A DNA stretch of 64,000 nucleotides from a bacterium (lineage in GTDB: Bacteria; UBA8248). A program made the position numbers and the translations under genes. The notes beneath the pieces are model-generated. The model ran no database searches. It was not told the DNA's origin and was given only the letters and a program-made list of their open reading frames with translations. Positions 3,295 to 62,894 of this stretch are shown here, piece after piece. Each line of letters begins with the position of its first letter. The stretch's first letter is position 1. The DNA is taken from assembly GCA_965219955.1 (NCBI GenBank), contig OZ244799.1:160001-224000 (forward strand), given 5' to 3'.

Positions 3295-5523
3295 ATGCCG
3301 AACGCATGGACGAGGGCCATTCGGGTGAATTTGAGACGATGGTTCGGGCGGCGGACGCCGCCGCGCCCGGGGTCGGTCCATGAAGCCGGGGATTCGGCGC
3401 GCTCGCGCATCGCCCGTTCGCGCCGGGCGAACCGGAAGTTCCAGTACTGCACGATAAGCGCGACGTTCGTTCTGATCGTGTTGTTGAGTTTTCTCTCCTA
3501 CCGCCTCTACGCGGACACCAAGGCCGAGACCGAGGAGAGGTCCAACCGCCGCCAGCTTCTTCTCGTGGAGCAGGCCGGCGACCGGATCGCCTCGTTCCTG
3601 GAGGCGCTCACGGCGACTTTGCGCTACAGCGCGGGTTTCCTGCGCACCATCGAACCCGACCATCCCGGACGAATGGCGGTGATGATGGGTTTGTACGAAA
3701 GGCTTGGCGGAAGGTTTCGCGTGAGCGAACTGGGCTACCTGCAGGGAGCGGATGAGCAGATCGCCGCGATTCCCAGGGAATACCTCGAAAAACTGGCGAA
3801 CTGTTTTTGGCCGGAGGGCGCATGTATACTCGTGATTCGCGATAAAGCCCAGAGGGTCTCCTCCCTGTTGGCGGCGGTGCCCGTGGCGTCCAAAGGAGAC
3901 GGGACCGAAGGATCCGAGGTGCAGCGGAAGCGCGACTGGCTCTACGCGCAAATTTCCATGACGGATCTGGCGCGCGCCTTCGTCGAGCCCGTTCAATCGG
4001 GTGGCCGCGAGCGGGCGTGGCTCGTGGACGGCGAGGGCAGAATCATCCTCCCTCCTGGCATCCCCCGGCTGGAAGGGGTTCGATTGTCCATCCTCGCGCG
4101 CGAGTTGGGGGATGGAAGACTGGAAAAACTCGCCGGGCGCATGAAGAAAGAAGTGAATGGTTTCGATTGGCATCTCGACTTGAGACCGGGGAATAAAGAA
4201 AAACGCTTGCGGTACCTGACGGCTTTCAGCAACTTTCCCGTAGGGCATGAGAAGTGGACGTTCGCCCTCACGGCGCCCTCCACCGAATTCGTCGGATTGA
4301 TCGGAAGCCTGTTCCGGAAGGGTCTGCTCCTGACGGCTTTCGGTTTCATCGCCTTGATACTGGCCGCTCTCTTGATCCTCGATCGCGAGCGCAGGCGCAT
4401 ACGGGCCGAGGACAGAATCCACTGGTCCGAACAGGTGCTGGAGAGCAACAGGCGGCTTCAGGCGTTGTTCGACGGCATCACGGACGCCATCGGCATTCTG
4501 GACAAGGATTTCCGCATCCGGATGCTCAATCGCTCGATGGGAAGGCTCTTCGGGCGCGAGACGTCCGATTTGCTGGATCAGAAATGGGAGAGAACGCCGC
4601 TCAGCGCGGTGCCGGAGTCGTTCGTCGAACGCTCCATCGTGGTCGATACGTTCGCGACCGGCGAGCCGGGATTTATCGAAAAGTCGATTTTGTGGGAAGA
4701 TGAGCGACGGATGGATATGGAATACTATACCTATCCGATTCTCGACGCCTCGGGAGCGACGCTTCAGGTGATTTTGTATTTGAAGGACGTGACCGGGCGC
4801 AAGGCGCTCGAAAAAGAGGTTCTCTACCGCGACAGGCTCTCGATCGTCGGAAAGATGAGCGAGCAGGTGGCGCATTCCATACGCAATCCCCTCTCGGCCA
4901 TCAGCCTGAACTCGGAATTGCTCGGCGATGAGTTGTCGCAATTCAAGGAGTCGGACACCGCCGAGGCATGGACGCTGCTCAAATCCGTCAGGGCGGAAGT
5001 GGACATCCTCAGCCAGGTGACGGCCGATTATCTCAAGTTCGTGCGGATGCCCAGCCTGGAGAAGACGCCTATCGACTGCAACGAGATGCTCGAGGATTTG
5101 CTGGACCTGCACGCGGAAGTGGCGGCGAGCAGGAGGATCCGGATCGAAAAGGAGTTCGAAAGAGATATCCCCGAGGTCATCCTGGATGAAACGCAAATGC
5201 GCGTCGCCATTCAGAACCTCATCTTGAACGGCTTCGACGCGATGCCCGACGGCGGCCGCCTGCTCGTGAAAACCGAACTGGAGAATCAACACCTCGCCAT
5301 CCGGATATCGGACAGCGGCAAGGGCATCAGCCTCGAGGAGCAGGCCTCTTTGTTCACGCCGTTTTTCACGACGAAGGCGAACGGAACCGGCCTCGGCCTC
5401 GTGTTGAGCCGGCAAATCATCACCGAGCACAACGGTAGCATCCACTTCGAGAGCGAGGGGGGGACGGGCGCCACCTTCATCGTCGAACTCCCTCTCGCCG
5501 TTGCGCAGGAGGCGAGAGCATGA
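3295..5523 (+). CDS. Membrane sensor histidine kinase (periplasmic Cache-like domain, PAS, HisKA, HATPase)
   Basis: Two TM segments, H-box VAHSIRNPL, N-box NLILNGFDAM, DSGKGI, FFTTK, GTGLGL; start codon uncertain. Confidence 0.9.
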   Translation: MPNAWTRAIRVNLRRWFGRRTPPRPGSVHEAGDSARSRIARSRRANRKFQYCTISATFVLIVLLSFLSYRLYADTKAETEERSNRRQLLLVEQAGDRIASFLEALTATLRYSAGFLRTIEPDHPGRMAVMMGLYERLGGRFRVSELGYLQGADEQIAAIPREYLEKLANCFWPEGACILVIRDKAQRVSSLLAAVPVASKGDGTEGSEVQRKRDWLYAQISMTDLARAFVEPVQSGGRERAWLVDGEGRIILPPGIPRLEGVRLSILARELGDGRLEKLAGRMKKEVNGFDWHLDLRPGNKEKRLRYLTAFSNFPVGHEKWTFALTAPSTEFVGLIGSLFRKGLLLTAFGFIALILAALLILDRERRRIRAEDRIHWSEQVLESNRRLQALFDGITDAIGILDKDFRIRMLNRSMGRLFGRETSDLLDQKWERTPLSAVPESFVERSIVVDTFATGEPGFIEKSILWEDERRMDMEYYTYPILDASGATLQVILYLKDVTGRKALEKEVLYRDRLSIVGKMSEQVAHSIRNPLSAISLNSELLGDELSQFKESDTAEAWTLLKSVRAEVDILSQVTADYLKFVRMPSLEKTPIDCNEMLEDLLDLHAEVAASRRIRIEKEFERDIPEVILDETQMRVAIQNLILNGFDAMPDGGRLLVKTELENQHLAIRISDSGKGISLEEQASLFTPFFTTKANGTGLGLVLSRQIITEHNGSIHFESEGGTGATFIVELPLAVAQEARA

Positions 5524-6899
5524 GCGATCACACCGGGGCGCGCGTGATGGTGGTGGACGACAAGCGCGGCAGCCGCGAGGCCCTTCAGAAGATGATCGCC
5601 AAGGAGGGGTTCGACGTCGCCATGGCGCACGACGCGGAAACCGCCGCCGAGATGTTCGGCGCCGATCCCGTGAATCTGGTGATCACCGATCTCAGAATGC
5701 CCGGGATGGACGGCATCGGTCTGCTCAAGGAGGTGAAGCGGCTCAGCCCGGATACGGAAGTGATTCTCATCTCCGGCGCAGGGAACATCGAGTCGGCCGT
5801 CGAGGCGATGCGCGAGGGGGCGTATGACTTTCTCACCAAGCCTCTGGAGCGGGTGGTCGTCTTGAAGGCGATAGACAAGGCGCTCGAAAAACAGGCCCTC
5901 ATGCGCGAGAACGCGGATTTGAGGGCGCAGCTTCAGAGCCTCAGGGACACCTCCGGCATGATGGGGGACCACCCCTCGATTCGCCGGGTGAAGGACATGG
6001 TTCGCCAGGTCGCGCCGACCTCCGCCACGGTTCTGATCCTGGGCGAGAGCGGAACGGGCAAGGAACTGGTGGCGAACGCCCTCCACGAGGGGAGCGAGAG
6101 GGCGGGCAAGGCGATGGTGAAGGTGAACTGCGCGGCGCTTCCGGAAACGCTCCTCGAGAGCGAACTCTTCGGCTACGAGCGCGGGGCGTTCACGGGCGCC
6201 GTGGGCCGCAAGGAGGGCCGCTTCCGGATCGCGCACGAGGGCACGCTGTTTCTCGATGAAATCGGGGATATGCCCCTCGTTTTGCAGCCGAAGATTCTCC
6301 GCGTCCTTCAGGAGGGAGAATTCGAGCGCGTCGGCGGAACGGAGACCTTGAAGGTGGACGCGCGAATCGTGGCTTCGACCAACGCGGACTTACAATCCGC
6401 CGTGGCCGAGAAGAGGTTTCGCGAGGATCTCTACTATCGTCTGAACGTGATCACCATCCACATGCCCGCGCTCAGGGATCGGCGAAGCGACATTCCGCTG
6501 CTCGCCGAACATTTCCTCCAGCGCTTCGCCGCGAAGAACAACCGGCCCGTTCTCGCGTTCTCGCGCGAGGCGCTTGGTGCGATGTCGAACTACCATTGGC
6601 CGGGAAACGTGCGGGAACTCGAAAACATGGTGGAGCGCGCCGTGGTGCTGGGCCGCGGAGAGATTCTCTCGGTGGATGATTTGCCTGCGCAAATCGCCCG
6701 GGGCGAGTCCACGAACGGGGAGCAGTCCGTGGCGTCGGACTCGCCGCTCATCAACCTGGAAGTCGGCACCCCGCTCGCGGAAGTCGAGCGTCGGGTCATT
6801 CTGGAGACCCTCCGGCATACGGGCGGCGACAAGAGCGCCGCCGCACGCCTCCTGGGTATCGCCACGCGCACCATTTACCGGAAGCTGGACGGGAGTTGA
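5520..6899 (+). CDS. sigma54-dependent response regulator (NtrC/AtoC family)
   Basis: Receiver domain (DLRMPGMDG), Walker A GESGTGKE, GAFTGA, WPGNVREL, Fis-type HTH; ATGA overlap with the kinase. Confidence 0.95.
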   Translation: MSDHTGARVMVVDDKRGSREALQKMIAKEGFDVAMAHDAETAAEMFGADPVNLVITDLRMPGMDGIGLLKEVKRLSPDTEVILISGAGNIESAVEAMREGAYDFLTKPLERVVVLKAIDKALEKQALMRENADLRAQLQSLRDTSGMMGDHPSIRRVKDMVRQVAPTSATVLILGESGTGKELVANALHEGSERAGKAMVKVNCAALPETLLESELFGYERGAFTGAVGRKEGRFRIAHEGTLFLDEIGDMPLVLQPKILRVLQEGEFERVGGTETLKVDARIVASTNADLQSAVAEKRFREDLYYRLNVITIHMPALRDRRSDIPLLAEHFLQRFAAKNNRPVLAFSREALGAMSNYHWPGNVRELENMVERAVVLGRGEILSVDDLPAQIARGESTNGEQSVASDSPLINLEVGTPLAEVERRVILETLRHTGGDKSAAARLLGIATRTIYRKLDGS

Positions 6900-45935: not shown

Positions 45936-46424
45936 GCGGCCGCGCGCAAATGCGGGCAGTTGCGGGGAAATGCGCGGGAGGCGAAAAACTTTTTTTGCCG
46001 CTATATATGAGTGTGTGACGCTCATGTCTATATGATAACCCTTTATATTACAATCGCTTAAACGGGAAATAATTTTCAATAATTTATCGAAAAACCCCGT
46101 AAATTTATCGAATTTTACGGGAAATAGGATTATTTTCATTTCCATCGTTATCCATGAACCCATGAACGCAACTCCCTGGCGAGAAAAAGCCCCCCTGAGG
46201 AAGGTTGGGAGGTCCGCCGCCTTCACTCTCGCTCCAAAGCCTGATTCCATAAAAAAGCCTCCGCGTCTTCCTTTAATTCCAGCCAATGCGGGAAAAACCG
46301 TTTTCCCGCGTCGCGCGCACGATACCGAATCTTGGAAAATGCAGGGATACGGCAAATGCGGGGAAATGCGGGAAAAAGTCGGGTGAGGAGGGGTTGTTGA
46401 AAAATCTCCGAGGAGAGAGAAATC

Positions 46425-46602
46425 ACTCCCCCCTTGAGGGGGAGTCGATGAGGTGAGGGTGCAAACCCGAAACCGAATCGGTGGGGGGTATAATTCGGAA
46501 TGGCAAGAAAACGCATTCTCCCCCCCACATCGGCCTTCGCACAAACCGCTCGGCCTCTGTCGGGCTTTCCCCTCGGGAAGTCCGACCCCCTCAAGGGGGG
46601 AG
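46425..46602. repeat. Palindromic repeat family C copy 2
   Basis: ACTCCCCCCTTGAGGGGGAGT...CCCCCTCAAGGGGGGAG. Confidence 0.75.
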
Positions 46603-46811
46603 GGAGTTTTACCATCAATAGAGGGAAGAGATTCCGTAGGGGCGGCTCGCGAGCCGCCCGTGCTTCTTGGAGAACGCCGTCATTCCGGCGTCAATTCCGG
46701 CCGAGGTGAAGATTCCCCATAGGGGCGGACCCGCGTGTCCGCCCGCAAGGTTCCTCAATCGACTACCATCCCCCCTTGCTTCTCCCCGCGCAATCGGCGA
46801 AAAGATAACGC

Positions 46812-49800
46812 ATGAGTCCGGTCAACCGAAACTTGACGACGGCGGTGGAGAATTACTTCTCCGATCTCTCGCGCATCCGCGCATCGGGCGGAGCGACGGG
46901 GGAGCGATCATACTACCCGGCTCTCGACAACCTTATCGGGGCCGTTGGCGGTGTGCTAAGACCCAAGGTGTTTTGCATCCCCGAACTCGCGAATCAGGGC
47001 GCGGGCCATCCCGATTTCGGCCTCTATGCGGCGAAGCAGGTGCAAAGGGGCGAACCCCGCGCGGGCCAGACGCCAGAGCGCGGCGTGGTGGAAGTGAAGT
47101 CCGCAGAAGAAGACGCCTGGCTTACGATGGAATCCGATCAGGTGAGCCGCTACTGGAACCGCTACCACCTCGTACTGGTCACGAACACGCGCGATTTCCT
47201 CCTTTTGGGCGAAAAGGCGGGACAGCCGGCCAAGCTGGAATCTTTCCGTCTGGCCGAGAACGTGGAAGACTTCGAGCGGCGTCTGGAAAGACCCCGCGCC
47301 TTCGCCCGCAGCATGGGAGCCGGACTGGCGGAATACTTGACCCGCGCCCTGTCCCATCAGGCGGCCATCGCGGAGCCGAAGGATTTGGCGTGGCTTTTGG
47401 CGTCCTATGCGCGCGACGGTCTCTCACGTGTCGAGCGCATCGATGCGGCGGGAGACGCGCTGGCCGCGCTGCGGGGCGCGCTGGAAGAGGGCCTAGGCGT
47501 CCGCTTCGAGGGGGAGCGAGGGACGCGATTTTTTCACTCCACTCTCGTGCAGACGCTCTTCTACGGCGTCTTCTCCGCATGGGTGCTCTGGGCGAGACAA
47601 CCGACCCGGCAAACGGACGCTTTCAACTGGCGCGAGGCCGTCTGGCATCTGCGCGCGCCCGTCCTCGCCGCGTTGTTTCAGGAGGTCGCGGCCCCCAACC
47701 GCCTGCAACTTTTCGATCTGGTCGAAGTGCTCGACTGGACCGCCGCCGCACTGGATCGCGTGGACAGGGAGGCCTTCTTCGCACAGTTCAATGAGGGCGA
47801 GGCGGTTCCCTATTTCTACGAGCCGTTTCTGGAGGCCTTCGACCCTGCGCTCAGGAAGCAACTCGGCGTGTGGTATACGCCGAACGAGGTCGTGCGCTAC
47901 ATGGTCGCCCGCGTGGACAAGGCGTTAAAAGACGATCTCGAAATCGCCGAAGGCCTGGCGGCGGAAAACGTCTACGTGCTCGACCCTTGCTGCGGCACGG
48001 GGGCCTATCTGGCCGAAGTCCTGCGGCGCATCAATGCGAATCTGGCGGGCCAGGGCTTGGGCGCGCTCGCGGGCGCGCGGGTGAAGGAAGCGGCCCTGAA
48101 TCGCGTGTTCGGCTTCGAGATTATGCCCGCCCCCTTCGTCGTCGCGCATTTGCAGGTCGGCCTCGCCCTGGATGGACTCGGCGCGCCGCTGGCGGATGAG
48201 GAGCGCGCGGGCGTATTCCTCACCAACGCGCTCACCGGCTGGGAGCCCGGGGCGAACAGGCCGCTCCCCTTTCCTGAACTGGAAGAGGAGCGCGACCGCG
48301 CGGAGCGTGTAAAACAAGAGACACCCGTTCTCGTGATTCTCGGCAACCCGCCCTACAACGGCTTCGCGGGCGTGGCCGTGGATGAGGAGCGCGAGCTGTC
48401 GAACGCCTACCGGGCGACGCGGCGCGTCCGAAAACCCGAAGGGCATGGGCTGAACGACCTCTACGTGCGCTTTTTCCGCATGGCGGAACGGCGCATCGTG
48501 GAGAAGACGGGCCGGGGGGTGGTGTGCTTCATCTCAAACTATTCCTGGCTCGACGGACTTTCCTTCCCCGGAATGCGCGAGCGTTATCTGGAAGCCTTCG
48601 ACGCCGTGCGGATCGACAACCTGCATGGTGACCGCATTATCTCGGAATATGCTCCTGACGGGCGAACCAGTGAAACAGTCTTCGCGCTTCGTGGACAATC
48701 ACCAGGTATCAAGGTCGGCACGAGTATCGCTTTGTTCACCAAGTCGGGAGTCGCCGAGACATCGACGGAAGGGCGTGTTCAATATCGCGATTTCCACCAG
48801 GCCAAAGCTGAAGATAGACGACTGGCGTTGTTGGAGAGTCTCAACGCCGCCGACCTCGACGCAGGCTATTCGACCCTGGAGCCTAACCTTAAACTCGGTT
48901 TGCCGTTCAAGCCCGCGATAGTGAGCGAAAAATGGTTCGACTGGCCTGCCCTGCTCGAACTGTTTCCGACCGCGTTTCCCGGCGTCAAGACCAGCCGAGA
49001 TTCGTTTCTCGTAGATACCGACCTTGACCGACTTAAAGCCCGCATGGGTGATTACTTTGATCCGGATTTGAGCCACGAAGAGATCGCGCGGCGTTATCCC
49101 CGCGTGATGCAGACCACCGGGCGGTTTGACGCCCGCGCAACGCGCGACGCGCTCCTCGCGCGCGGCGGCCCGAGTGAGAGCGGCTTCATTCGTTTCGCCT
49201 ACCGGCCATTCGACACTCGCTGGCTCTACTGGGAGGCGGAAACAAAACTGCTTGATGAGAAGCGCGCCGAATACAAACCGCACGTGTTTGAGGAGAACAT
49301 GTGTTTTGTCCTACAAAACGCGGCGAGACCTGATCTGTCTCCTCCTTTACTTATTAAAGAGATAGGTGATCTCAATCAGATGAATAGTGGTGTCTATTGT
49401 GTCCCCGTATGGCTCGACGCAGACGAGCTAGACATGGCCAATGGTGGGCATCGCCCGAATCTTTCCGAAGCGGCGCAAGGCTACCTGAAGCGTGTCGGCG
49501 GGAGTATTGAGGATTTGTTCCACCATACCCTCGCTACGCTACACGACTTTACCTACCAAGAAGATAATGCGGACGCTTTGAGAGCAGAAGGCCCGCGTAT
49601 TCCACTCCCCGGCTGGCCGAACGGCGGAGGGAAAGACGCTGCGGAGATTTTGGCCGAATCCGCCGCGCGGGGCCGCGAACTCGCGGCATTGCTCGACCCC
49701 GAGACGCCCGTTCCGGGTGTAACCCAAGCTCCCCTGAGACCTGAGATGGCCGCCGTCGCCGTTCCCGCCACGGAGCGCGGAAGCCAGATGACGGGCGATG

Positions 49801-50165
49801 ATTTCTCCGTAACGGCAGGGTGGGGACACTTCGGAGCGGGAGACGCCGTGATGCCCGGCGCGGGCCGCGCCGTCGAGCGGGCCTGGACGGATGAGGAACG
49901 CGTCGCCCTGTGCGATGCGCTGTCCGCCCTCGGCGAGACGGCTTTCGACGTATATCTCAACGAGTGCGCCTTCTGGCGGGGCGTCCCTGCAAAGGTATGG
50001 AGCTACAAGCTCGGCGGCTACCAGGTTTTGAAGAAGTGGCTCTCCTATCGCGAGCAGACCATTCTCGAACGTCCCCTTAAGCCGGAAGAAGTCCGGCACT
50101 TCACCGACACGGCGCGAAGAATTGCGGGGATTTTGATGCTGACGGATGGAAATACGCAATGCTGA
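46812..50165 (+). CDS. Single-chain restriction-modification enzyme (nuclease, N6-adenine MTase, type ISP-like specificity domain)
   Basis: N-terminal PDFG...VEVK (PD-(D/E)xK), YFYEPFL..GVWYTP, LDPCCGTG, GNPPY, YRPFD, C-terminal GGYQVLKKWLSYR; no helicase motifs. Confidence 0.88.
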   Translation: MSPVNRNLTTAVENYFSDLSRIRASGGATGERSYYPALDNLIGAVGGVLRPKVFCIPELANQGAGHPDFGLYAAKQVQRGEPRAGQTPERGVVEVKSAEEDAWLTMESDQVSRYWNRYHLVLVTNTRDFLLLGEKAGQPAKLESFRLAENVEDFERRLERPRAFARSMGAGLAEYLTRALSHQAAIAEPKDLAWLLASYARDGLSRVERIDAAGDALAALRGALEEGLGVRFEGERGTRFFHSTLVQTLFYGVFSAWVLWARQPTRQTDAFNWREAVWHLRAPVLAALFQEVAAPNRLQLFDLVEVLDWTAAALDRVDREAFFAQFNEGEAVPYFYEPFLEAFDPALRKQLGVWYTPNEVVRYMVARVDKALKDDLEIAEGLAAENVYVLDPCCGTGAYLAEVLRRINANLAGQGLGALAGARVKEAALNRVFGFEIMPAPFVVAHLQVGLALDGLGAPLADEERAGVFLTNALTGWEPGANRPLPFPELEEERDRAERVKQETPVLVILGNPPYNGFAGVAVDEERELSNAYRATRRVRKPEGHGLNDLYVRFFRMAERRIVEKTGRGVVCFISNYSWLDGLSFPGMRERYLEAFDAVRIDNLHGDRIISEYAPDGRTSETVFALRGQSPGIKVGTSIALFTKSGVAETSTEGRVQYRDFHQAKAEDRRLALLESLNAADLDAGYSTLEPNLKLGLPFKPAIVSEKWFDWPALLELFPTAFPGVKTSRDSFLVDTDLDRLKARMGDYFDPDLSHEEIARRYPRVMQTTGRFDARATRDALLARGGPSESGFIRFAYRPFDTRWLYWEAETKLLDEKRAEYKPHVFEENMCFVLQNAARPDLSPPLLIKEIGDLNQMNSGVYCVPVWLDADELDMANGGHRPNLSEAAQGYLKRVGGSIEDLFHHTLATLHDFTYQEDNADALRAEGPRIPLPGWPNGGGKDAAEILAESAARGRELAALLDPETPVPGVTQAPLRPEMAAVAVPATERGSQMTGDDFSVTAGWGHFGAGDAVMPGAGRAVERAWTDEERVALCDALSALGETAFDVYLNECAFWRGVPAKVWSYKLGGYQVLKKWLSYREQTILERPLKPEEVRHFTDTARRIAGILMLTDGNTQC

Positions 50166-54794: not shown

Positions 54795-54870
54795 ACGCGG
54801 GGGCATTCGGATCTGTTGAAAAAGTCCCCTGAGGAAGCAATTTTGGGCTTCACGCACGCTTTTGAATTTC

Positions 54871-55052
54871 ACTCCCCCCTTGAGGGGGAGTCGAAGAGCT
54901 AAGGGCGTAAGCCCGCAAGCGATTCGGTGGGGGGTATAAGTCGGACTGACAATAAAACGCATTTTACCCCCCACCGCATCAGCCTTCGCAAAAAACGCTC
55001 GGCTTCTGTCGGGCTTTCCCCTCGGGAAGCCCGACCCCCTCAAGGGGGGAGT
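54871..55052. repeat. Palindromic repeat family C copy 3
   Basis: Same ends as other family C copies; interior colinear with 46425-46602. Confidence 0.75.
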
Positions 55053-55193
55053 GATTTTTCTCTCTCGTCGGTCGATTGCATACGACAAATCCAGAGTTCC
55101 AGACTTTTTCTACAGACCCCTCAAGGGGGGTGCTCCTTTGACAAAGTCTTTTTCAACGTCCTCGTTTTCGCCGGTTGGACACCCCCCCCGGCA

Positions 55194-55237
55194 TGACGAT
55201 TTGTCGTTTTCGTCGGGCATATCGTGACAAAATGTCA
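55194..55237. promoter_or_regulatory. Tandem palindromic enhancer-like sites for a sigma54 activator
   Basis: TGACGATTTGTCG (55194) and TGACAAAATGTCA (55225), 31 bp apart, upstream of the sigma54 site. Confidence 0.6.
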
Positions 55238-55301
55238 ATTTGACCGATCGTGTATATTTCTATCCTGTTGATAAATAAGGCATATTCCATCTTCATAGAA
55301 A

Positions 55302-55317
55302 TGGCACGGCTATTGCA
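55302..55317 (+). promoter_or_regulatory. sigma54 (-24/-12) promoter
   Basis: TGGCAC-GGCTA-TTGCA, exact consensus TGGCAC-N5-TTGCW. Confidence 0.88.
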
Positions 55318-55331
55318 TGTTATATGAGCAA

Positions 55332-55476
55332 GCTGATTGGGGCGTTCATAGGCGGCACGCCCCGGTTAGCCGGCGAGAGGAGTAGCTGATTGGGTCGGCG
55401 CTCCTCCGCCACGCAATCATACATCTCGCAACTACCCCTTGCGAGAGCCTCCTCCCGGAGACGGGAGGAGGTTTTT
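55332..55476 (+). ncRNA. Candidate sigma54-dependent structured sRNA, copy 1
   Basis: Three hairpins plus terminator (CCTCCTCCCG-GAGA-CGGGAGGAGG-T6), no credible ORF, paralog at 62672-62819 with compensatory changes. Confidence 0.75.
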
Positions 55477-55604
55477 TATTGGCCCGGTTTCCCTCCGCGC
55501 GGTTTTCAAGCGTACGCCTTTGGGTTATGGTGCGGCCCAAGTGAAATCACTCGGCGTATATTCGATGTTGAAAATTCATCCATTCAGTGATTAAGGAGTC
55601 GAAA

Positions 55605-56603
55605 ATGGCTACGGACAAGGTGCGCCTCGCCTCTATCGGGCTGGGCTGGTGGGGCGGCGTTCTGGTGGACGCCGTGAACCGCAGCGGTTCCGGCGAGGTG
55701 GTGACGGGTTTCGCGCGCAGCGAAGACGCCCGCAAGGCGTTTTCGGAGAAACACGGTTGCCGGACGGCGGGCAGCCTGGACGATTTATTGAACGACCCCG
55801 AGGTGGAGGGCGTCATCGTCGCGACGCCCCATTCCACGCACCTGGACATGATTTCTTCGGCCGCATCGGCCGGAAAGCACGTCTTCGTCGAGAAACCGCT
55901 CACCTTGACGGTCGATGAGGCCAGAAAGTCGGTCGAGGCGGCTTCCGCCGCGAACGTCACCCTGCAGGTCGGCCATCATCGCCGCCGCTTCGGCGCGAAC
56001 CGCGAGATGAGGCGGATGATCGACGCAGGCGAACTCGGCGTGGTGCACCAGGTGGAGGCGAACCTCTCGCTTCCCATGGGCTTCGAATCCAGGCCGGGCT
56101 GGCGTAACGACCCCGCCGAATGCCCCGCAGGCTCCATGACGGGCCTGGGCGTCCACATGATCGACAACCTGCAGTACCTGGCCGGACCCGCGAAGCGGGT
56201 GGCCGCCTTCAGCAAGAAGCTGCTCGGCAAGACGAACCTCGACGATGCGACGAGCATCATCATCGAATACGAGAGCGGCCCGCTCGGCCATATCGGAAGC
56301 TCTTTCGTGGTTCCCAAGATCTGCGACACGGCGGCCTTCGGCACGAAGATGAGGGCCTACAGCGAGGAAGAGGGCGGAAAGCTCTACGTGGCCAAGGTGG
56401 GCGAGGAAGCCCGCACCGAGGTCGAGGTCGTGGGCGGAGACGCCCTGGCGGATGAGATGGATGAGTTCTGCAAGTGCATCCGGGGCGAGGCGACGCCCGA
56501 AACCGGCGGGCCCGAGGGGCTCGAGGTCGTCGCCGTGCTCGAGGCTGTGGTGCAGAGCGCGACGACGGGTCAGGTGGTGGACGTGGCGGCCCTGCGCGGA
56601 TAG
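55605..56603 (+). CDS. Gfo/Idh/MocA oxidoreductase
   Basis: IGLGWWG, ATPHSTH, GKHVFVEKPL, GVHMID. Confidence 0.92.
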   Translation: MATDKVRLASIGLGWWGGVLVDAVNRSGSGEVVTGFARSEDARKAFSEKHGCRTAGSLDDLLNDPEVEGVIVATPHSTHLDMISSAASAGKHVFVEKPLTLTVDEARKSVEAASAANVTLQVGHHRRRFGANREMRRMIDAGELGVVHQVEANLSLPMGFESRPGWRNDPAECPAGSMTGLGVHMIDNLQYLAGPAKRVAAFSKKLLGKTNLDDATSIIIEYESGPLGHIGSSFVVPKICDTAAFGTKMRAYSEEEGGKLYVAKVGEEARTEVEVVGGDALADEMDEFCKCIRGEATPETGGPEGLEVVAVLEAVVQSATTGQVVDVAALRG

Positions 56604-60765: not shown

Positions 60766-62500
60766 CCCGGATATTTCACCGACAAATGGCATGGGGCCTC
60801 TGAATGTCGGATAATGTGAGTTGTCTCAATAACTTACACCCGTCCGACAGAGAGGCCCCATGGATACGCATTGTACACCGGAACAACTTCACTTTCACCC
60901 CCACGGAAGACGCGAGGTCATCGCCCGATTCGACGGCGGACGGATCACGTCGGACGCCGGCGGGGTGCTGCTTCGCGAGACGGATCTCCGCCTGGGTCTG
61001 ATGGCTCGTCTGGCGCGGTGTTTTCGTGATTGCCGCAAGCCCGGCAGCGTGGAGCACCCGGTGCGCTCGCTGGCGGCGCAGCGGGTGTACGCGCTGGCGC
61101 TGGGCTACGAGGACCTGAACGACCACGAGGATTTGCGCCGCGACAGGTTGCTGGCGCTGCTGGTGGGCAAGCGGGACCTGACGGGAGCCGGGCGGGTTCG
61201 CCTTCGGGACCGCGGCTCTCCGCTGGCCGCATCGAGTACGCTGAACCGCCTGGAGTTGGGCGGCGCCGAGGCGGCGACGGATCGCTACAAGCGCATCGCT
61301 GCGGACTTCGAGGCGATGGACCGCCTGCTGGTGGACGTGTTCATGGAGTCTTACGCCGAACCGCCCGAAGAGATATGGCTGGACCTCGACGCCACGGACG
61401 ACCCCCTGCACGGTCGCCAGGAGGGGCGCTTCTTCCACGGCTATTACGGCCGCTACTGTTATCTGCCGCTCTACGTCTTCTGCGGCGCGCATCTGCTGTG
61501 CGCGCGGCTGCGCCGCTCGAACGTCGACGCCTCGGCCGGCAGCGAGGAGGAGTTGGCGCGGATCGTGGCGCAGGTCCGCAGGCGCTGGCCGCGTACGCGG
61601 GTCGTGGTTCGCGGCGACTCGGGTTTTTGCCGCGAGCCGTTGATGCGCTGGTGCGAGGAGAACGGCGTCGGCTACGTGTTCGGCATGGCGCGCAACGCGC
61701 GGCTGGTGCGGGCGATTGGCCGGGACCTCTACCGGGCCGAGGTCGTCTGTCGCCGCACGGGTGAGCCGGCGCGCCGGTATCGCGACTTCCGCTATCGAAC
61801 GCGCAAGAGCTGGTCCAGAACCCGCCGGGTGGTGGGCAAGGCGCAATACCTGCCCAGGGGGGCGAACCCGCGGTTCGTGGTCACCAATCTCCGCCCCCGG
61901 CGGGCCGGCGCCAGACGCCTCTACGAAGAACTCTACTGCGCCCGGGGAGAGATGGAGAACCGCATCAAGGAACAGCAACTCGGCCTGTTCGCCGACCGCA
62001 CCAGCAGCGCCACCATGAGGGCCAATCAGTTGCGGCTCTACTTCGCCTCCTTCGCCTACGTCCTGATGCACGGACTCCGGCGCCTGGGGCTGGCGGGCAC
62101 GACATGCGCCAGGGCCCAGTGCGCAACGATCCGGCTGAAACTGCTCAAGATCGGCGCCCGCGTGAGGGTCAGCGTGCGCAAGGTCCGGCTGTCTATCTCC
62201 GAGGCCTGGCCCCATGCGGCGCTCTTCGAAAAGGTAGTGAACAACCTGCGTACGCACCCGCCCTGGCCGACGGCGGGGGAGAGTGACTGAGCGTAGAATC
62301 GGAGCGACATAGGTTGCCGCAGCGGGAAACCTGCGCCTGCGCGTCGGCCGGCACTCCCCGAAAGCCTTCGAAATCGACGAAAAAGCGCCGCTCGGGCGCC
62401 GTGCGTCATCGTATCGCGCCGACGAAGAAGGCCGCCTCCCGAATCAAGCCGTCCACGACTTCAAATCAGGCCGTTCCAAAGCCTCGGTGAAATATCCGGG
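60766..62500 (+). mobile_element. Complete IS1380-family insertion sequence with CTAG target duplication
   Basis: Perfect 17-bp inverted repeats CCCGGATATTTCACCGA / TCGGTGAAATATCCGGG; CTAG at 60762-60765 and 62501-62504. Confidence 0.93.
60860..62290 (+). CDS. IS1380-family transposase
   Basis: FDGGRITSDAG, GYEDLNDH, LDLDATDDPLHGRQEG, RGDSGF, YCARGEMENRIKE. Confidence 0.95.
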   Translation: MDTHCTPEQLHFHPHGRREVIARFDGGRITSDAGGVLLRETDLRLGLMARLARCFRDCRKPGSVEHPVRSLAAQRVYALALGYEDLNDHEDLRRDRLLALLVGKRDLTGAGRVRLRDRGSPLAASSTLNRLELGGAEAATDRYKRIAADFEAMDRLLVDVFMESYAEPPEEIWLDLDATDDPLHGRQEGRFFHGYYGRYCYLPLYVFCGAHLLCARLRRSNVDASAGSEEELARIVAQVRRRWPRTRVVVRGDSGFCREPLMRWCEENGVGYVFGMARNARLVRAIGRDLYRAEVVCRRTGEPARRYRDFRYRTRKSWSRTRRVVGKAQYLPRGANPRFVVTNLRPRRAGARRLYEELYCARGEMENRIKEQQLGLFADRTSSATMRANQLRLYFASFAYVLMHGLRRLGLAGTTCARAQCATIRLKLLKIGARVRVSVRKVRLSISEAWPHAALFEKVVNNLRTHPPWPTAGESD

Positions 62501-62671
62501 CTAGAGTGATGCCGGGAGGCTTGAACCTGGAGACGCGCAAGGCGAGCGGGTCGTTCTACATGGAAGTCCGGCGCGGGAACGACCACTGGGTGCACCGGAA
62601 CTTCGTCGCCCGCTAAACCGGCGCCCGTCGAACCGGTTGGACGGGCGGCGCTTGCCCCGGATACAGGAAAT

Positions 62672-62819
62672 GCCGGTCGGAGCGTTCTTTGGCGGCACGC
62701 CCCGGCTGGCCGGCGCGAGGAGCGCCGATAGGGTCGGCGCTCCTCCGCCACGCAATCCTCCGTCTCGCATCTATCCCCTGCGAGAGCCTCCCCCCGGAGA
62801 CGGGAGGAGGCTTTTCTTT
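62672..62819 (+). ncRNA. Candidate structured sRNA, copy 2
   Basis: Colinear paralog of 55332-55476 with the same four hairpins and GAGA-loop terminator. Confidence 0.7.
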
Positions 62820-62894
62820 CGGGTGAAGCGCCCCGCGTCCGGCGGAGCGTTTTGGGCGATCGGGCCGGAAACGACGATAAAAAACGAAAGGCGG

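Follow-up and report, generated by a model that had tools for sequence, protein, structure and literature searches.

Positions 55194-55477 of a 64,000-nucleotide (nt) stretch of contig OZ244799.1 (hereafter, the window), from a bacterium of the UBA8248 lineage, contain two palindromic upstream sites, an A+T-rich block, a sigma-54-type promoter and a structured region of about 150 nt ending in an intrinsic terminator. This arrangement is suggestive of a small RNA gene, whose predicted transcript we designate RNA-1. The host genome is a single contig of 4.28 Mb (94% complete by marker genes) and harbors two copies of RNA-1.

Elements of the RNA-1 locus and their conservation

The two upstream activator sites, TGACGATTTGTCG (55194-55206) and TGACAAAATGTCA (55225-55237), follow a TGAC-N5-GTC pattern and are separated by 31 bp, start to start, with the first being the weaker palindrome and the second a perfect one. 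They are located 108 and 77 bp 5′ of the promoter, respectively. An A+T-rich, IHF-like block (TATCCTGTTGATAAAT, 55261-55276), called with the IHF consensus and, like both palindromes, assigned to neither strand, lies between this enhancer and the promoter and contains the sequence TTGATA (TATCAA on the minus strand) at 55268-55273. The promoter itself (TGGCACGGCTATTGCA, 55302-55317, plus strand) is an exact TGGCAC-N5-TTGCA, with TGGCAC at 55302-55307 and TTGCA at 55313-55317, in agreement with the sigma-54 consensus TGGCAC-N5-TTGCW; it presents the GG at -24, the GC at -12 and the upstream sites at roughly 80-150 bp by which such promoters are recognized. An earlier note on this DNA had described the paired TGAC-N5-GTCR palindromes 31 bp apart, the A+T-rich tract with a partial IHF-like TATCAA and the exact promoter, and all of them were read at these positions, as were the hairpins, linker and terminator that it had listed for the RNA, with which the computed fold agrees.

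RNA-1 is predicted to span 55328-55477 of the plus strand, with its start placed from the -12 spacing and its end from the T-run of the terminator. The P1 hairpin (55332-55370), identified by folding and covariation, pairs 55332-55345 with 55357-55370 and has a 13-nt apical loop, the 3′ half of which is the invariant AGGCGGCA. It is followed by the P2 hairpin (55372-55410; GGCG..GGAG..GCUGAUUGGGUCGGC..CUCC.CCGCC), both arms of which are nearly invariant in the covariance-model alignment, and by a 14-nt linker (ACGCAAUCAUACAU, 55411-55424), predicted to be single-stranded in the folds and conserved as CACG..AUYAU in the alignments. The P3 hairpin (55425-55445), supported by fold and alignment, pairs 55425-55431 with 55439-55445 around a C-rich loop. 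The terminator (55448-55477), evident in sequence and fold, is composed of a 10-bp G+C stem with a GAGA loop (CCTCCTCCCG-GAGA-CGGGAGGAGG, 55448-55471) and a T6 run (55472-55477). RNAfold returned the same four hairpins with a free energy of -86.8 kcal/mol (z = -7.4), and none of 200 shuffled sequences was as stable.

Conservation was analyzed in a panel of 42 genomes of the family, comprising the host genome and 41 others, in which genus g1 (genera are numbered here with the prefix g) contributes 22 genomes; a total of 39 RNA-1 loci (L001-L031 and L084-L091) were oriented and inspected. A TGGYAY-N5-TTGC promoter is kept in 38 of the 39 loci, 46-56 nt 5′ of an invariant GGCGGCAC (one locus has a 69-nt insertion), and the sole promoter-less locus is the second copy in the window. 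The earlier note had named conservation of the -24/-12 site in homologues as a test of its reading, and this outcome speaks in its favor. The insertion, in genome G012 (L013:1428-1496), lies between promoter and RNA and starts with a partial duplicate of the RNA 5′ end; the G012 locus is present on two contigs. Upstream of the promoter, a GACA-N3/4-TG-N-CA site is found in 36 of the 39 loci, at about 76 bp, and a TGAC-N5-GTC-like site in 34, mostly at the position of the first palindrome, with TTGATA or TTGAAA conserved across the aligned loci. A T-run of at least five residues is found at the matching 3′ end of 37 of the 39 loci. At least seven genera, the distant g3 and g9 among them, retain the enhancer sites, the promoter and the terminator.

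The predicted helices are maintained by compensatory change. In an alignment of 43 sequences (40 distinct), itself fitted to the covariance model, standard pairs occupy 96.0% of 1239 cells; changes on both sides were observed in 11 of 31 pairs, a number matched by 2 of 500 shuffles, and the covariation score of 0.271 (shuffled mean, 0.176) was reached by none of 500. When the 3′ partners were slid as a control, pairing fell to 38-53% of cells. An independent MAFFT alignment of 27 sequences was 97.7% paired and contained nine double-change pairs, a result that none of 500 shuffles reached. Among the 40 distinct sequences, 9 of the 16 pairs in P1 change on both sides and yet stay paired, while P2 has 8 invariant and 2 covarying pairs out of 15, with 97.8% of its cells paired. 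The terminator stem also covaries according to RNAalifold. P3 is restricted to genus g1, being absent from the g9 and g3 loci; genera other than g1 present, in its place, a short unstructured pyrimidine-rich stretch before the terminator.

We consider RNA-1 to be non-coding because three relatives lack its only ATG (55325), having ATAAGAG in that place, and because the linker and P3 vary by insertions and deletions whose lengths are not divisible by three. A small-protein reading was rejected on these same grounds, upholding the view of the earlier note that these 150 nt hold no credible open reading frame. A tRNA or tmRNA reading was likewise rejected, with ARAGORN finding neither in positions 54800-55700.

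Distribution, a second predicted sigma-54 RNA and a candidate activator

A covariance model of the P1-P2-linker core (R1), built from 27 sequences, scored 107.7 bits at its own locus and found the RNA in 36 of the 41 other family genomes; it returned no match in an outgroup panel of nine genomes from three other families of the same phylum, in genus g8 (four genomes of about 2.1 Mb) or in genus g7 (one genome, 87% complete). BLASTN detected RNA-1 in 33 of the 42 family genomes, including all 22 genomes of genus g1. Furthermore, an exact-pattern scan of one genome per species, covering 185,579 species, yielded 32 stretches, all of them in metagenome-assembled genomes (MAGs) titled Nitrospinota, Nitrospinaceae, Candidatus Tectomicrobia or simply "bacterium". 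A covariance-model search of genomes, as the earlier note had proposed, thus places the RNA in a single family, and its proposed comparison with Rfam left the novelty of RNA-1 standing. Rfam 15 at gathering thresholds gave no match in the entire window, and a search of 54800-55700 at E<=10 returned only noise, the best match being anti-hemB with 18.6 bits against a cut-off of 49.5 bits; neither search matched a riboswitch. The Rfam families GlmY, GlmZ, Qrr, CrcZ, NrsZ and Acido-Lenti-1 did not appear in the latter search, in keeping with the remark of the earlier note that RNA-1 was not recognizable as any known sigma-54-dependent small RNA.

The second RNA-1 copy in the window (62667-62820, plus strand; 94.6 bits with R1) is 87% identical to the first, presents compensatory changes in P1 and carries no sigma-54 motif. 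It is located 50 nt 3′ of a conserved 35-codon open reading frame (62509-62616) and could be a form derived from a 3′ untranslated region. Promoter-less second copies are found 5.5-7.3 kb downstream of the primary copy in five close genomes, the host and four relatives, and genome G003 has a second copy that is sigma-54-driven. The spacing of 7.3 kb in the window, compared to 5.5 kb in the relatives, is due to the insertion of a DDE transposase gene (60860-62290) between the two copies.

The exact 13-bp palindrome TGACAAAATGTCA occurs only twice in the host genome, both times 5′ of a sigma-54-type promoter. The second occurrence precedes, by about 160-175 bp, a minus-strand promoter at 3,130,173, some 2.9 Mb from RNA-1, which is followed by a non-coding region of about 185 nt ending in a terminator. 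We designate this second RNA, delimited by sequence and conservation, RNA-2 (L093:3965-4173, equivalent to G000:C1:3129965-3130173, minus strand; enhancer at L093:4334-4346). The chance of both palindrome copies falling 77-175 bp 5′ of a sigma-54-type promoter and a non-coding RNA is about 9e-7. The two upstream regions also resemble each other in having a weaker second palindrome, at RNA-2 32 bp from TGACAAAATGTCA, and an A+T-rich block, which at RNA-2 (TATCGCGTTGATAAAT) is near-identical to the TATCCTGTTGATAAAT of RNA-1, with a common TATC-N3-TTGATAAAT. An extended enhancer motif, GACAWWWTGNCAAT, had 71 matches in the 42 family genomes versus one for the reversed control, and those of genus g1 are located at the two RNA genes and at one site within a coding region. 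RNA-2 is present in 21 of the 22 genomes of genus g1 and in g4, and its core is found with the same promoter geometry in g3 and g9. It had no match in Rfam and shows no visible relatedness to RNA-1, with which it has in common, by eye, one 9-mer, about the chance level. It faces a HAD hydrolase gene in convergent orientation, without any gene downstream of it.

A third sigma-54-type promoter (TGGCACGATTATTGCT, L092:13034-13049; G000:C1:3628034) has no TGACA palindrome and precedes a small membrane-protein open reading frame, followed by Usp, RimK-like ATP-grasp and aldehyde-dehydrogenase-like genes.

The gene content of the host makes the proposed sigma-54 dependence plausible, in line with the earlier note. 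The genome encodes RpoN (Sigma54_DBD, E = 2.5e-59) and only two true sigma-54 activators (Sigma54_activat, both E = 1e-72). One of them, identified from Pfam matches, is an NtrC-family response regulator with REC, sigma-54 AAA+ and HTH_8 domains, encoded within the window (5520-6899, plus strand) and adjoining a PAS-HisKA-HATPase sensor histidine kinase (3295-5523, plus strand; Pfam and translation). Ahead of the PAS domain, the kinase has two hydrophobic stretches around a region of about 270 amino acids, a topology assigned by eye. The other activator, a GAF-AAA+-HTH protein encoded at 3.62 Mb, maps some 7 kb from the third promoter. Full-length orthologues of the NtrC-type activator, with at least 71% identity, are found in every RNA-bearing genus, and the four genomes of genus g8, which have no RNA-1, present only GAF-type-like matches. 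The RNA and the NtrC-type gene are 22-50 kb apart in most complete g1, g5 and g9 genomes and about 135 kb apart in G017. The best equivalog scores of the NtrC-type protein fall below all curated cut-offs (AtoC, 489/714; NtrC, 434/559; LuxO, 363/800). Because its orthologues track the RNA-bearing genera and the GAF-type protein is encoded near the palindrome-less third promoter, we assign both RNA-1 and RNA-2 to the NtrC-type system, which is most likely their common regulator. An activator encoded next to RNA-1 was also considered and discarded, as the flanking genes (Peptidase_M50B-like, lipoprotein-like, Gfo/Idh/MocA and xanthine-dehydrogenase-family) do not encode activators.

In the model that we favor, sigma-54 polymerase would sit closed on the TGGCAC-N5-TTGCA promoter until the activator, docked on the two palindromes that lie 77 and 108 bp further upstream, contacted it via DNA looping. 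The intervening IHF-like block would probably assist this looping, and the genome has nine matches to HU/IHF-family genes. Transcription would then proceed from near 55328 to the strong terminator at 55448-55477. Phosphorylation of the NtrC-type regulator by the adjacent membrane PAS histidine kinase would make RNA-1 a reporter of an extracytoplasmic signal, and the same activator would drive RNA-2, giving a visible regulon of two small RNAs. RNA-1 itself would act in trans and post-transcriptionally, with the P1 loop AGGCGGCA, the P2 helix and the CACG..AUYAU linker plus the pyrimidine-rich stretch that follows it as putative effector parts. As to how these parts might act, we favor Hfq-independent base-pairing with mRNAs slightly over protein binding or sequestration, which appears nearly as likely.

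Genomic context and alternative readings

RNA-1 is preceded by genes for a Peptidase_M50B-like membrane protein and a lipoprotein-like product of about 200 amino acids, and followed by a Gfo/Idh/MocA oxidoreductase gene and a xanthine-dehydrogenase-family molybdoenzyme gene. The ATG of the oxidoreductase gene (55605) lies about 128 nt 3′ of the T-run, close to the 130 nt given in the earlier note, and the spacer between the RNA and this start codon measures 107-201 nt across loci. Its best-conserved block across g1, g3, g6 and g9 is a sigma-70-like promoter on the plus strand, with TTTTCA (55503-55508) and TATGGT (55526-55531) separated by 17 nt, which supports the interpretation that the RNA unit is bounded by it on the 3′ side and that the next gene is separate. 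The 5′ untranslated region of the oxidoreductase gene (within 55503-55604) also contains a covarying hairpin. Further upstream, a G/C-rich, hairpin-forming repeat of about 190 nt occurs at 54866-55060, between the lipoprotein-like gene and the enhancer, and at 46420-46610, with copies 86-94% identical. The intergenic regions of the window are full of other short REP-like repeat families, and a Type ISP-like restriction-modification gene (46812-50165) is located upstream of RNA-1.

We also inspected contigs from four RNA-library runs from four studies, which cannot show transcript ends and may contain DNA; stretches left uncovered in runs X1, X3 and X7 are uninformative. A single 170-nt contig from a relative covers 55339-55477 and nothing upstream, and the other three runs cover not the RNA, but only positions from 55573 or 55602 onward. 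These contigs give a weak hint that RNA and gene are independent.

Taken together, these data suggest that 55194-55477 probably makes up a complete gene in its own right, driven by sigma-54 and encoding a structured non-coding RNA some 150 nt long that acts in trans. Several results weigh against this interpretation, and we consider them here together with the rival explanations. Sigma-54 motifs are not in excess: allowing up to one mismatch, the window has 2 matches versus 3.7 expected, and strict sites number 10 genome-wide, compared to 18.3 expected from base composition. We take the locus as real because its architecture is conserved, not because the motif is rare, and we attach significance to the promoter because 38 of 39 homologous loci keep it at a fixed distance. 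The promoter-less copy shows that the RNA is able to exist without this sigma-54 promoter. A simple consensus scanner called neither the RNA-1 terminator nor the sigma-70-like promoter, which has only 8 of the 12 consensus bases; the terminator was most likely missed because G-U and A-U pairing can lengthen its stem into the T-run, an extension also present in the RNAalifold structure. The activator assignment amounts to essentially one loss event, in genus g8, plus elimination, and two fragmented genomes depart from it: G032 (87% complete) has the activator and no detected RNA, and G001 (91% complete) has the RNA and a best activator match only 47% identical. On every contig that is long enough (g1, g2, g3, g4, g6 and g9), moreover, the primary copy lies 5′ of the Gfo/Idh/MocA gene in the same orientation. 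This invariable arrangement would also fit a cis-acting leader or attenuator, in which the sigma-54 promoter would really drive the Gfo/Idh/MocA and molybdo-oxidoreductase genes, with the P1-P2 core binding a ligand or protein that gates the terminator, as in a riboswitch or in protein-mediated antitermination; the highly invariant loop and helix nucleotides are indeed aptamer-like, and the 170-nt contig continues for 30 unlike letters past the T-run. However, the long spacer with its conserved sigma-70-like promoter speaks against a leader, as does the very stable terminator stem, for which no cross-genus antiterminator pairing was seen by eye; an alternative pairing between P2 and the terminator arm was discarded as a conserved switch because the arm similarity is confined to genus g1. 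Extra copies also lie away from the Gfo/Idh/MocA gene (five promoter-less, and the sigma-54-driven one in G003), RNA-2 has the twin promoter without a gene to lead into, and, as a weak indication, the RNA-library contigs of the gene begin 3′ of the sigma-70-like promoter. We consequently regard a leader as improbable, and of the two options left by the earlier note, the stand-alone transcript gains from the sigma-70-like promoter while the attenuator is weakened. Far more improbable still is that the locus is a repeat or mobile-element remnant, or a regulatory region acting as DNA, and not a functional RNA. Abundant REP-like repeats, the 190-nt element immediately upstream (54866-55060) and the proximity of the second copy, 7.3 kb away, to a transposase gene might suggest it, but there are just two copies in the genome and one or two in relatives, always syntenic, with helices kept by compensatory changes and with promoter and terminator conserved in register.

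A separate question within the interpretation of an independent sigma-54-driven gene is whether RNA-1 pairs with mRNAs or titrates a protein, as GlmY, CsrB and 6S RNA do, under the same regulation. Complementarity searches proved uninformative, and the lack of a convincing target is one of the points for titration. A blastn-short comparison of RNA-1 with the host genome returned only 13-15-mers at chance frequency, the best linker match being antisense inside an open reading frame that resembles, by eye, a transporter-permease gene, and the 9-mer common to RNA-1 and RNA-2 (complement, GCGAGATGT) was not enriched at plausible gene starts. Duplex energies were also computed against a set of gene starts, namely those of the oxidoreductase, the sensor kinase, the two activators and the operon behind the third sigma-54 promoter; the best value, at the NtrC-type activator start, fell at the 6th percentile of 200 random windows, and as intramolecular structure was ignored the comparison is uninformative. 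The P2 arms and P1 loop are nearly invariant over at least seven genera, and the P1 stem drifts compensatorily; for P2, the near-invariance of both arms would be explained by protein recognition no less readily than by base-pairing. Titration is likewise favored by the scarcity of single-stranded bases in the RNA and by the lack of a Pfam match to Hfq in the single-contig, 94% complete genome. On the other hand, base-pairing small RNAs have conserved stems too, and no candidate protein partner emerged: CsrA had no match and no RapZ-like protein was found in the genome, the sole loop GGA, that of the terminator, is not conserved, whereas a Csr/Rsm sponge would have several GGA motifs in conserved loops, and the neighboring genes encode a lipoprotein-like protein and oxidoreductases rather than RNA-binding proteins. 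We view protein titration as a possible, though somewhat less likely, alternative. A bolder proposal, which we advance tentatively and consider doubtful, is that the direct regulon of the NtrC-type system in this Nitrospinota-like lineage consists of only two unrelated structured small RNAs in a cell lacking Hfq, CsrA and RapZ, and that the P1-loop/P2 module binds a protein or small molecule. Were this so, the module would represent a new class of effector RNA rather than another base-pairing small RNA.

Comparison with known sigma-54-dependent small RNAs

Sigma-54-dependent small RNAs are documented almost only in Proteobacteria (Qrr, GlmY/GlmZ, CrcZ/CrcY and NrsZ). Among the papers listed by a non-exhaustive search of the open-access literature, none on Nitrospinae, Nitrospinota or Tectomicrobia dealt with sigma-54 or with small RNAs. 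Of the proteobacterial systems, the Qrr1-5 RNAs of Vibrio are Hfq-dependent and constitute, as multi-copy small RNA genes, the main direct targets of the NtrC-family regulator LuxO with sigma-54. The system proposed here would resemble them in having small RNA genes as direct targets of such a regulator, but it differs in that Hfq was not found in the genome, RNA-1 has no Rfam match and the activator scores well below the LuxO cut-off (363 vs 800). In Pseudomonadaceae, CrcZ/CrcY with CbrA/CbrB and NrsZ with NtrB/NtrC are sigma-54-dependent small RNAs under two-component activators, with CrcZ/CrcY titrating a protein and NrsZ being induced by NtrB/C. RNA-1 would share with them sigma-54-dependent control by a two-component activator; in contrast, it has no A-rich Hfq/Crc motifs and no Rfam match, it belongs to a different phylum, and Hfq was not found in its host genome.

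With only two sigma-54 activators encoded in the genome and the enhancer motif limited to two promoters, the inferred circuit of kinase, activator and two small RNAs can be read from sequence and is testable in a heterologous host. The locus also poses the problem of how structured small RNAs function in cells without detected Hfq, CsrA or RapZ, and the R1 covariance model is ready for annotating the new family in further MAGs of the lineage.

The closest system in logic is GlmY/GlmZ with GlrR/GlrK (QseF/QseE). In Yersinia and Salmonella, GlmY and GlmZ are each described as transcribed by sigma-54 under one response regulator acting on conserved upstream sites, with IHF needed at glmY (PMC3045617). 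RNA-1 and RNA-2 similarly share an enhancer, an IHF-like block and a sigma-54-type promoter. They differ from GlmY and GlmZ in having no match to Rfam families in sequence or structure, in presenting two TGAC-N5-GTC-type upstream sites instead of three GlrR sites, and in belonging to a lineage outside the Enterobacteriaceae; a RapZ-like protein was not found in the host genome. Furthermore, GlmY and GlmZ are homologous to each other, whereas RNA-1 and RNA-2 are not visibly related. RNA-1 is a new RNA family within the known class of sigma-54-dependent small RNAs, and provides a clean, strongly conserved case in a deep-branching, uncultured lineage represented by sponge-associated and groundwater MAGs.

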